A stretch of 61,475 nucleotides of DNA, counting the filler, from Parachlamydiales bacterium (lineage in GTDB: Bacteria > Chlamydiota > Chlamydiia > Chlamydiales > Parachlamydiaceae): the NCBI GenBank assembly GCA_020051075.1. It is 3 parts of 3 records of this genome, joined end to end, with 100 filler letters (N's around TTAATTAATTAA, not from the genome) between each part and the next. Parts side by side here need not be neighbours in the genome. Positions count along the whole stretch, not along the records: positions 1 to 29,975 come from JAGVJP010000028.1; 2 more parts are not named here. The stretch is one strand, 5' to 3'. Shown in pieces: positions 11,731 through 13,875 of the stretch (positions are counted from its first letter, which is position 1; every line of letters begins with the position of its first letter). The notes below the pieces were generated by a model, which worked only from the letters and a program-made list of their open reading frames with translations, was not told the DNA's origin and made no database searches. Both the position numbers and the translations under genes were made by a program.

Positions 11731-13875
11731 CTATGAATTCAATAAAGAACTTGATACAGAGCTCGACGAGCTTGATTCAGAATCCCCTGCCAGAAGGCTT
11801 TGAATGCTCAAACCTAAAGCGTCCATGCGATCAGCCGCCTCAGCAGCACTAGGCCTGCGAGTCGGATCAACATGAAGCATTTCCCATGCTAGATGGCGCA
11901 ATAAATCGGGTTCAGGGGGCTCATCAGGGAAACATTTTTTTATGTCCGCAATGCGACTCAGTAAATCCTTGCCTTTATAAAAAGCCCAACCACAGAAAAC
12001 ATCGAAGCTAACTTCTACATACTCTGTAAGATATTTATCAAACGAGTTGTCTGAAGGATAAATTCGTTTAATGACCAAATTCCATAACATTACCCCCACA
12101 GGAAAAATATCGGCTTTTGTTGTTATTTTATGCTGAACCTGAATCATGTTTTCAATCACCTCTGGAGCAAGTTGTTCGGGTTTAGCCGCAAATATTTGTT
12201 TGCGAGCTAGAATTGCCAACTGACCCAACTTTGATTCATCCGAAATCTCGTCCGTCGGACGAGCAGATCCCAAATCACCCAATTTTGCCTGCCCTGAACT
12301 ATCTAGAAAAATGTTATCCATATGAAGATCGAGATGAATAAATCCAAAATGATGGAGTTCTTTTAACCCTTTTAAGGTAGATGACAACACTTTCACGATG
12401 TTTTGGATCTCTAAAAAGATTTTAGGCAGACCCAACGTTCCTCCATCCATATTCTCCCAAATGGCCGTTAGCTTCCTTTTATCGTCAACAACGGTAATGC
12501 CATGTTTTTCAGCAAAAGTTCTTTTAGAGCGGTAAAACCCCAGAGCATTGACAATATATTGACTTCCTTGGAGTTTTTCAAGCAACGCTTGCTCATAGCT
12601 TAAGGGGATATCAACATCCTCGATGCCCTCACAAAAAACATCTTCAGTTGTCCAAACTTGTTTATCTTCAGGATTTAGATGAACAGAACCTAGCCATGCA
12701 GATTTGAAGCTCCCCCGTGCAATCATTCTAGGTTGTGGGTCATGCAATTCCCCGCTGGGTAGTTTAAAAAGTGTCTTTCGATCATCTTTTGGGACATTTA
12801 ATTTGTCTGTTTCAATCGTACTTTCATGGACCAAATAAACTTTTTCTGCTGTCAGCCACATTGATTTAGCAGATTTATGCCGAAGAATGTAGATCGGTTG
12901 ATAATGGCTTTCAGGAGGGCCATCACCCATGATCAGACACAATTTTCCCATATTCAACACTTCAAAACCAATCTGTTCATAATGTTCTTGACCGATATGA
13001 GATAACTGGTTTGATGAAATAATCATGAAACCGTCAGGAGTCAACATGTCTTTATATGCCTTTATCAGCTCAATGCCTTCCTCTATACTGATTCTAGCGG
13101 GACAAATCAGATTGCGAATGATCATGAGATTAACCTTCTCCCCCAATTGTGGGGTAAGTGTATTCTCATGGTGTTGATGGAGTCGTTCGCTGATATAGTG
13201 ATGATAGAAATGAGAAGGGCCGCTTTCCGGCTCAGATGTCGATGCAGGATATCTTACAGCATGATAAGAGACAATATTGGGAAATTGATCCAAGATACAG
13301 TGTCCCAAAGTCGTGTCATCATTATAGACCTCTAAAGCAGTGATCAAAGGGTTTCCAAGATACTGACTAATCCCAAAAACAGCTTCTAAGAGAGTCTCAT
13401 TAAAGTGATGGGCAGGCAGAGGAAGAAGCTGGGGAATTTGTTCGGTTGCGGAAGAGAGAATTTCGAATTCGTCTCCATTAAAATAAGGTAGTAAGAAACA
13501 TTCAACCGGAATAAAAGATCTCCCTGCGGTACGAGAATCGAGAAGATAAGAGATCGATTGATGCTCCCCCATAAATTGCCATAACTGCATTTTAAAATCT
13601 TCACCATGAAAAATTTTTATTGTGATACCTTGAATTTTTTCGGATCCAATTGAGATGTCTGCATCAATGAGTTTCATGCGAAAAGTAGTGGAAGGTAAAT
13701 CTGGTTCTGAAAATTCTCTCACACCAACTCTAGCGCAAGTTCCTGCAAATGCATTAAATTGCCTGTTTAGATTGTCGTGGATCATTCTCTGCAATGAAGG
13801 GTCATCTACCTGGCGAGGGAGTGGCGAAGAAATGGCATAAAGAGGTGCCATACTCCTTCCTGTTGCTATTGACAT
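11731..13875 (-). CDS. Eukaryotic-like Ser/Thr protein kinase (WNK-like motifs) with N-terminal extension; probable effector
   Basis: ARGSFK, HLDLHMDNIF, KLGDLG, APE, ADIF, RRPSA motifs; Ser-rich tail. Confidence 0.85.
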   Translation of the reverse strand: MSIATGRSMAPLYAISSPLPRQVDDPSLQRMIHDNLNRQFNAFAGTCARVGVREFSEPDLPSTTFRMKLIDADISIGSEKIQGITIKIFHGEDFKMQLWQFMGEHQSISYLLDSRTAGRSFIPVECFLLPYFNGDEFEILSSATEQIPQLLPLPAHHFNETLLEAVFGISQYLGNPLITALEVYNDDTTLGHCILDQFPNIVSYHAVRYPASTSEPESGPSHFYHHYISERLHQHHENTLTPQLGEKVNLMIIRNLICPARISIEEGIELIKAYKDMLTPDGFMIISSNQLSHIGQEHYEQIGFEVLNMGKLCLIMGDGPPESHYQPIYILRHKSAKSMWLTAEKVYLVHESTIETDKLNVPKDDRKTLFKLPSGELHDPQPRMIARGSFKSAWLGSVHLNPEDKQVWTTEDVFCEGIEDVDIPLSYEQALLEKLQGSQYIVNALGFYRSKRTFAEKHGITVVDDKRKLTAIWENMDGGTLGLPKIFLEIQNIVKVLSSTLKGLKELHHFGFIHLDLHMDNIFLDSSGQAKLGDLGSARPTDEISDESKLGQLAILARKQIFAAKPEQLAPEVIENMIQVQHKITTKADIFPVGVMLWNLVIKRIYPSDNSFDKYLTEYVEVSFDVFCGWAFYKGKDLLSRIADIKKCFPDEPPEPDLLRHLAWEMLHVDPTRRPSAAEAADRMDALGLSIQSLLAGDSESSSSSSVSSSLLNS

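Follow-up and report, generated by a model that had tools for sequence, protein, structure and literature searches.

A chlamydial kinase domain with a candidate ATP-anchoring lysine on strand beta2, fused to a methyltransferase-like N-terminal half

The stretch of DNA analysed here (the window, 61,475 nucleotides of a Parachlamydiales bacterium, assembly GCA_020051075.1) contains a gene for a protein of 714 amino acids, P0001, whose C-terminal kinase domain has no lysine at the VAIK position of strand beta3 but has an invariant one, Lys391, in its glycine (Gly) loop at the start of beta2. We lean toward the reading that P0001 is an active non-RD kinase using Lys391, that a dead methyltransferase serves it as an accessory domain, and that it is exported to act on host proteins. 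A broader proposal, which we hold with slightly less than even confidence, is that P0001 belongs to a large, undescribed and probably single-origin clade of active, host-directed beta2-Lys kinases in environmental chlamydiae, which would have invented the active site of WNK and POMK independently, that its HLDxH branch has a rewired catalytic loop, and that this member carries the dead methyltransferase as a module for docking substrates or ligands.

The gene is a single open frame on the minus strand, intact over its 714 codons, and every kinase string quoted in an initial annotation of the window is found in it (IARGSFKSAW at residues 385-394, EQALLEKLQ from 428, HLDLHMDNI at 514-522 and KLGDLG at 531-536). 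Its two main features are the following.

11731-13875, minus strand: open reading frame (ORF) of P0001, a methyltransferase-derived N-terminal half plus a kinase domain with relocated lysine, supported by the full-length homolog P0003
11806-12765, minus strand: kinase domain of the eukaryotic protein kinase (ePK) fold, residues 371-690, non-RD, HLDxH subfamily

Pfam Pkinase (PF00069) matches residues 427-681 with an E-value of 2.8e-23, and the features that mark ePK membership (alphaC Glu, HxD..N, DxG and APE) are present, as is a complete C-lobe with APE, the alphaF Asp and the alphaH-I Arg. An AlphaFold2 model of residues 371-700, generated from a 10-row alignment, has a predicted local distance difference test score (pLDDT) of 83 and a predicted TM-score (pTM) of 0.86, and places beta1 at 378-387, beta2 at 391-398, beta3 at 405-414 and alphaC at 428-434. 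Compared with generic ePKs the model reaches structural Z scores of up to 21.8, and the 50 neighbours listed are all ePK-fold protein kinases or pseudokinase kin. The sole full-length homolog is P0003, with 55% identity over 96% of the length, in a search that returned 3 matches among 8000 scored candidates. Searching with the 10-row subfamily alignment also gave 3 proteins from 8000 scored candidates, of which two had been found before and one was a row of the alignment, and a pattern search for related loci across genome contigs gave 15 matches with none confirmed.

The residues expected at the active site are laid out as follows.

12694-12723, minus strand: Gly loop IARGSFKSAW (385-394) with the proposed ATP-anchoring Lys391 (codon 12703-12705) opening beta2; G388 and K391 shared by all 10/10 subfamily members
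12628-12663, minus strand: beta3 region KQVWTTEDVFCE (405-416), with the VAIK-Lys column on T409-E411 and neither Lys nor Cys there (alignments and model)
12592-12594, minus strand: alphaC Glu428, invariant in 10/10, in model helix 428-434
12310-12336, minus strand: catalytic loop HLDLHMDNI with Asp516, His518 in place of the usual Lys, and Asn521; H-L-D and N invariant, His518 in 9/10
12259-12285, minus strand: predicted metal-binding loop KLGDLGSAR with Asp534; Ser537 at the position of WNK1 Leu371 (alignments)

The initial annotation had singled out the Gly-loop lysine of GSFK and the absence of a lysine at the VAIK position, and both observations stand. Lys391 is the third Gly-loop position, and the model opens beta2 with it, as in WNK and POMK. 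Mutation of the lysine at this position is reported to abolish WNK1 and POMK activity, in the text available of PMC10211241 and PMC5142810. Whichever estimate of the VAIK-Lys column is taken, it holds neither Lys nor Cys. A profile-profile alignment sets VAiK opposite W408-T-T-E411, the VAIK-Lys column of a 189-row alignment is likewise E411, and the subfamily motif Q-V-x-T suggests, in our reading of the register, T409. The annotation had instead taken DVFCE for the VAIK equivalent, which does not fit this column. P0003 has TTQIIPGGK at that site, with no Cys, and retains the Gly-loop Lys in RGSTKVAW, which also means that the Phe of GSFK is not conserved. Because Cys415 lies past every estimate of the column, just after the modelled beta3, and because P0003 has no Cys, we regard the likeness of VFCE to the VAWCE of WNK as chance. 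The beta3 segment itself reads QVWTTE in P0001 and QIRTTQ in P0003 and does not match the WNK motif VAW[C/N]. One other lysine, K405 of EDKQV, had been named as a possible true beta3 Lys. It was rejected, as it lies at the beginning of beta3, 4-6 residues ahead of the column, and is a Thr in P0003.

The subfamily was assembled from HLD[LC]H proteins drawn from a representative search (best 150 of 3014) and from an order-wide genome search, in which 62/301 genomes had some kinase match. Ten members were aligned, where P0003 is 54% identical to P0001 and the eight others 24-29%. Invariant in all ten are G388, K391, E428, H514, L515, D516, N521, D534, R539 and the Pro-Glu of APE, and none has a beta3 Lys. 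With His518 in nine of the ten, the change from Lys to His in the catalytic loop, which according to the initial annotation may alter activity, is a signature of the subfamily and not damage to this one gene. The metal-binding loop reads DFG in 7/10 and DFN in one, with DLG in P0001 and P0003. A profile of the subfamily found matches in 10/401 genomes at an E-value of 1e-20, four of them strong and three of those being alignment rows. With the same query, 30 genomes from f35, a family of small genomes, yielded nothing. Hydrophobic N-terminal segments are present in 5/7 other subfamily proteins examined, and such segments resemble those of inclusion-membrane proteins.

The exchange of one lysine position for the other extends beyond this subfamily. 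Kinase loci were taken from kinase-rich chlamydial genomes picked by hand, using part of the matches only, so the sample is not random. From 339 ORF hits we dropped 67 without HxD..N..DxG, which gave 242 distinct domains. Of these, 189 showed a clear Gly loop and entered the alignment. The count covers its 173 genome-derived rows, leaving aside 12 rows from databases, 3 that lack the second Gly and 1 with conflicting loop assignments. A beta3 Lys is present in only 11/60 rows with a Gly-loop Lys versus 100/113 rows without one; conversely, it is missing in 49/60 and 13/113 respectively. Taking one row per 40%-identity cluster, the beta3 Lys is found in 9/44 versus 35/46. Ala is the commonest replacement in the beta3-Lys column of Gly-loop-Lys rows (26/60), and the alphaC Glu, on which the rows were not selected, is retained in 56/60. 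The rows with the lysine shift come from 17 genomes with 10 family codes.

Phylogeny places P0001 within this group. In our most careful tree, calculated with the LG+C20 mixture model on 44 rows, the 15 chlamydial beta2-Lys rows fall on one side of a branch with support of 96/94 and the HLDxH subfamily is recovered with 100/97, while WNK (100/99) lies on the other side beside the canonical kinases. In a quick tree of 65 rows WNK likewise stands apart as a group (100) and P0001 falls inside the subfamily (95), and an approximately unbiased (AU) test on 53 rows rejects the joining of P0001 and P0003 to WNK (p 0.013). The chance that P0001 is simply an ordinary chlamydial Pkn kinase, raised at the outset, also finds no support. 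The kinases of the same genome that we take to be PknD-like and Pkn5-like keep the beta3 Lys and have no Gly-loop Lys, and two such Pkn-type kinases score only 12-16 bits pairwise with the P0001 kinase domain, which does not indicate orthology. It appears that a chlamydial clade moved its ATP-anchoring lysine to beta2 independently of WNK.

The lysine shift was also seen outside this clade. Six metagenome rows (L266, L287, L312, L313, L319 and L328) are TKL-like and of eukaryote type, with HRDLAARN; they read G[SA]FKTVY and lack a beta3 Lys. The same holds for L305, also from a metagenome, a bacterial-type kinase row with HRDVKPEN. Since these group elsewhere, the shift has arisen several times. 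Divergent kinases in tandem arrays were also observed, at L193 (G348:C1:1788500-1802500, about 10 matches in 14 kb), L231 and L253.

The N-terminal half of P0001 has a different ancestry, and its parts are as follows.

12871-13425, minus strand: class I S-adenosylmethionine (SAM) methyltransferase-like core, residues 151-335, with the motif I region at 13303-13335 (BLASTP to L371, family profile)
13426-13875, minus strand: N-terminal subdomain, residues 1-150, which aligns to the N-terminal part of a chlamydial methyltransferase family and has no Pfam match

On their own, residues 1-345 gave nothing meaningful in Pfam or NCBIfam, no PDB sequence match and 0/806 candidates. An Atlas feature score of 0.80 for methyltransferases was a lead only, obtained before a family search reached the protein L371. 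That search, of 73 same-family genomes, gave this one other match, a standalone class I methyltransferase of 384 amino acids (Methyltransf_12, E-value 5.3e-8) that aligns to the P0001 N-terminal half with a BLASTP E-value of 5e-9 over 364 columns at 21% identity. Relatives of L371 occur in 11/350 genomes, its own included. A profile of 13 methyltransferase ORFs, built without P0001, finds P0003 at 8.4e-9 and P0001 at 7.7e-7 and ranks the two above all other ORFs of the genome (12831 ORFs). By this chain of alignments through a chlamydial intermediate, the N-terminal half is homologous to the class I SAM methyltransferase core. The homology to the standalone family (L371-L384; Pfam Methyltransf_12/25/31) spans the N-terminal 330 residues of P0001 including the subdomain. 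The standalone proteins keep the glycine-rich motif I (E/D-x-G-x-G-x-G), with the acidic residue and glycines in 13/13 rows, whereas P0001 and P0003, which are fused to a kinase, have kept the Glu and lost the glycines. In our reading this loss makes the N-terminal half a putative pseudo-methyltransferase, and the apparent combination of kinase and pseudo-methyltransferase was met in P0001 and P0003 only. A full-length AlphaFold2 model, made from only 2 sequences, has a pLDDT of 29. The standalone family is itself of some interest, being patchy, with an N-terminal extension, and possibly made up of effector methyltransferases.

Taken together, these features suggest how the protein could work. 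Lys391 would reach the alpha and beta phosphates of ATP and pair with the alphaC Glu428, Asp516 would serve as the catalytic base, Asn521 and Asp534 would bind Mg, and His518 would occupy the place of the Lys that usually contacts the gamma phosphate. Because Leu replaces Arg before the catalytic Asp, activation-loop phosphorylation is probably not needed. The N-terminal half, as a captured class I methyltransferase, would most likely be a docking, localisation or regulatory module. We predict that the protein is exported by a type III system and phosphorylates proteins of the host, likely a protist. Secretion of P0001 is plausible, and the signs of it are circumstantial: the genome contains a type III export gene of the SctT/FliR family, the P0001 gene is an orphan insertion, and relatives have hydrophobic N-termini.

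Looking at the possible problems with this reading, several observations weigh against it. No hydrophobic segment was found in P0001. The covariation rule is not absolute, as 11/60 domains have both lysines and 13/113 have neither, and the assignment of the beta3 column depends on the alignment. When alignment-free beta3 motifs are counted instead, on 40% clusters, the covariation is weaker (14/44 versus 30/46 with a strict motif, 20/44 versus 34/46 with a permissive one). That the 60 rows keep HxD, Asn and DxG is circular as evidence, because hits without these motifs had been dropped beforehand. Related rows are not independent, and therefore the significance is overstated; if the beta2-Lys clade has a single origin, the covariation is one event. 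As for the phylogeny, 21 rows, mostly long branches, were omitted from the careful tree, and in the quick tree an unresolved group contains 11 divergent chlamydial rows with a beta3 Lys among the beta2-Lys rows. Finally, joining the whole 7-row subfamily to WNK was not rejected by the AU test on the same 53 rows (p 0.10).

This last result bears on the reading that goes back to the initial annotation, in which the gene was taken over from a eukaryotic WNK, or mimics one, and its product could respond to chloride and influence ion or osmotic signalling of the host. The part of the WNK hallmarks that holds is the Lys on beta2, the lack of a beta3 Lys and the retained alphaC Glu, all within a common ePK fold; the part that fails is VAW[C/N], HRDLK and DLGL, in place of which P0001 has QVWTTE, the non-RD loop HLDLH and DLGS. 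For comparison, true WNK domains were obtained by a motif scan of metagenomes, and the profiles scored against P0001 were built without P0001 and P0003. On a 6-sequence WNK profile P0001 reaches 27 bits, compared with 121 for the profile of its subfamily and 94 for that of the other chlamydial beta2-Lys kinases (98 bits on a 'canonical' profile is a biased value, the rows of this profile having been picked as matches of P0001). The best pairwise WNK score is also 27 bits, at rank 21 of 65 rows. Neither the best 60 of the 210 matches to PDB sequences for P0001 nor the best 60 of 609 for the subfamily profile include a WNK. With the kinase model, Foldseek places WNK3 (PDB 5o2c) at rank 31 with 18% identity, and the absence of WNK from the 50 rows listed by VIA-align says nothing about a different fold. 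Together with the separate tree clades, the grouping with the HLDxH subfamily and the lack of a Pfam match to OSR1_C/CCT, as well as the methyltransferase-derived N-terminal domain, these results do not bear out a WNK origin or mimicry.

The chloride argument had rested on the DLG motif, which P0001 shares with WNK1-4. As described in PMC7606576, the amides of residues Gly370 and Leu371 bind the anion in WNK1, which also touches Phe283, Leu299, Leu369 and Leu371, the L369F mutation abolishes chloride sensitivity, and a vacant beta3-Lys site may leave room for an anion. The pocket motif is DLGL in 8/8 WNK rows examined versus DLGS in P0001, and DLG also occurs in 16/100 ordinary chlamydial kinases. 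The argument fails, since the WNK1 Leu371 position is Ser in P0001 and 7/10 relatives have DFG, the residue of the chloride-insensitive mutant. Nothing supports a conserved chloride site in P0001. Judged by its sequence, P0001 is WNK-like in the position of the lysine alone and is not a member of the WNK family, and the gene gives no information on host ion signalling. Even allowing for the shared lysine position, the DLG of P0001 and P0003, the room for an anion and the AU test, we consider the WNK explanation very improbable.

The genomic setting of the gene helps with the remaining alternatives.

10560-11360, plus strand: GT2 glycosyltransferase, left flank of the insertion site (domain match, relatives' loci)
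14144-15984, plus strand: LAB_N protein and lpxB, right flank of the insertion site (domain match, relatives' loci)
11473-11641, no strand: imperfect inverted repeat with 46-nt arms, 74% complementary, downstream of the P0001 gene and repeated elsewhere in the genome

We compared 11 of 15 matches to this locus in relatives. In 11/11 the GT2 gene is followed by LAB_N or lpxB within about 200 bp and the kinase is absent, which shows that a conserved lipid A operon has received the kinase gene as a lineage-specific insertion, oriented against its neighbours. The orientation and this absence were the grounds for rejecting the idea, prompted by the neighbouring genes, of a part in lipid A synthesis. 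The region 11361-11730 has 29 blastn hits on 22 contigs of the genome, the self hit included. The gene has a GC content of 0.41, versus 0.44 +/- 0.04 for 1230 long ORFs. Features that point to an environmental chlamydia as the source are the LAB_N/lpxB order, a CesT-like neighbour (below the cut-off), the PknD-like and Pkn-like kinases, the type III export gene and a phylum sample with a family of 1.0-1.3 Mb genomes carrying 2-4 kinases. In a related strain (run X1) the full gene is spanned by one contig, which shows 246 differences as well as 40 gaps, and among 19 isolated differences in related strains (taken from 40 listed of 312), 13 are at third codon positions and 10 are synonymous. One sequencing run, which we guess to be RNA, covers 209 bases, from which nothing follows for expression.

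An alternative with some force is that P0001 is an ATP-binding pseudokinase scaffold with little or no phosphotransfer, similar to ULK4, which with its pseudo-methyltransferase would make a doubly non-catalytic effector. That neither the beta3 Lys nor the Lys of the catalytic loop has been kept agrees with this, as does the fused methyltransferase domain without motif I, and there is a chlamydial precedent in Pkn5, described as a secreted pseudokinase in the text available of PMC5177608. However, at identities of about 25% the catalytic Asp, the Asn, the DxG Asp and the alphaC Glu show no variation, whereas the bacterial pseudokinase families described in the accessible part of PMC12599244 degrade HRD or DFG. 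We therefore think a pseudokinase unlikely. The domain could also be an active kinase of a non-protein substrate, such as a lipid, sugar or glycan. HxDxH loops resemble those of small-molecule kinases, and His is at the catalytic-loop Lys position in 9/10 members. The gene sits in a lipid A locus and has weak NCBIfam matches, far under the cut-off, to Kdo/RfaY kinases, and in POMK a Lys relocated to the same place serves a kinase that acts on a glycan (PMC5142810). The full ePK C-lobe and the structural neighbours described above argue otherwise, as do the opposite strand and the absence of the gene from all the relatives' loci, and we find a non-protein substrate quite improbable.

It is also conceivable that the kinase is decaying and its Gly-loop Lys a coincidence. 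The distribution is patchy, with one full-length homolog among the 8000 scored candidates, and the gene is a lineage-specific insertion adjoining a repeat. Against this stand the intact 714-codon frame, the 55% identical full-length homolog, the invariant catalytic residues, the third-position bias of the differences and the clade-wide covariation, which make decay a highly unlikely explanation. An active kinase using Lys391 is the reading that we prefer.

Comparison with known systems places this reading in context. In POMK (SgK196) a lysine at the start of beta2 does the job of the beta3 Lys (PMC5142810, in the part available), and P0001 shares this lysine. POMK lacks the alphaC Glu, has shifted HRD and DFG residues and acts on a glycan, whereas P0001 keeps the alphaC Glu, the catalytic Asp, the Asn and DxG. 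The chlamydial Pkn1, PknD and Pkn5 have the ePK fold in common with P0001 and belong to the same phylum, and the role of a type III effector is ascribed to Pkn5 (PMC5177608). The PknD-like and Pkn5-like kinases of this genome differ in that they retain the beta3 Lys, carry Gly or Ser as the third loop residue and group on the other side of the tree. The DLHK bacterial pseudokinases of the bSTK atlas are mainly proteobacterial and helicase/DNA2-linked, with a degraded DFG and beta2 arginines, as far as the accessible text of PMC12599244 describes them. Like P0001 they have no beta3 Lys, keep the catalytic Asp and Asn and have basic beta2 residues, and a DLH-type loop as in P0001 is suggested by the family name. 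By this description P0001 differs in its intact DxG, its invariant beta2 Lys and the lack of helicase/DNA2 domains. The portions available of PMC12599244, 10.1101/2025.01.12.632604, PMC5177608, 10.64898/2026.09.18.752743, PMC11696984 and PMC5451489 do not describe such a chlamydial clade. We found no paper on beta2-Lys kinases in chlamydiae, in a search that most subscription papers lay outside; the supplementary family tables of the bSTK atlas may contain the sequences of this clade.

If our proposal is true, sequence rules would label the whole beta2-Lys clade as pseudokinases though its members are active, a missing beta3 Lys being the standard rule for calling a pseudokinase. If they are active, the 49/173 sampled domains would represent a sizeable misfiled share of environmental chlamydial kinases, bearing in mind that this is a non-random sample of kinase-rich genomes, and the lysine shift of WNK and POMK would be a repeatable evolutionary solution and not a rarity. 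Because the shift is present here without the WNK chloride pocket, the clade could be useful as a natural series to ask what the shift is good for, such as anion sensitivity, the inhibitor pocket or constitutive activity.

The rest of the window provides some minor observations. The P0001 gene lies on positions 1-29975 (contig C72), and gene order across the joins is not real, because runs of N at 29976-30075 and 51802-51901 join contigs C72, C75 and C85. An ankyrin-repeat protein of a kind typical of intracellular bacteria is encoded at 2808-4217. The intergenic repeat at 4380-4810, with a period of about 90 bp and 516 blastn hits on 52 contigs, is an abundant dispersed element. At 5602-8403 a CesT/YbjN-like protein (below the cut-off) is encoded immediately upstream of a coiled-coil protein of 754 aa, which contains hydrophobic stretches and matches nothing in Pfam, and the pair looks like a type III chaperone with translocator- or effector-like cargo. 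The 605-aa ORF at 16643-18460 has no match over the cut-off in Pfam or NCBIfam; its His-rich motifs, seen by eye, are to us reminiscent of a lipoxygenase-like C-terminal domain. Three long ORFs at 23639-29974 (643, 649 and 718 aa) have no Pfam match, and the first two, with N-termini rich in Ser, Thr and Gly, look like tandem paralogs and are a candidate effector family.

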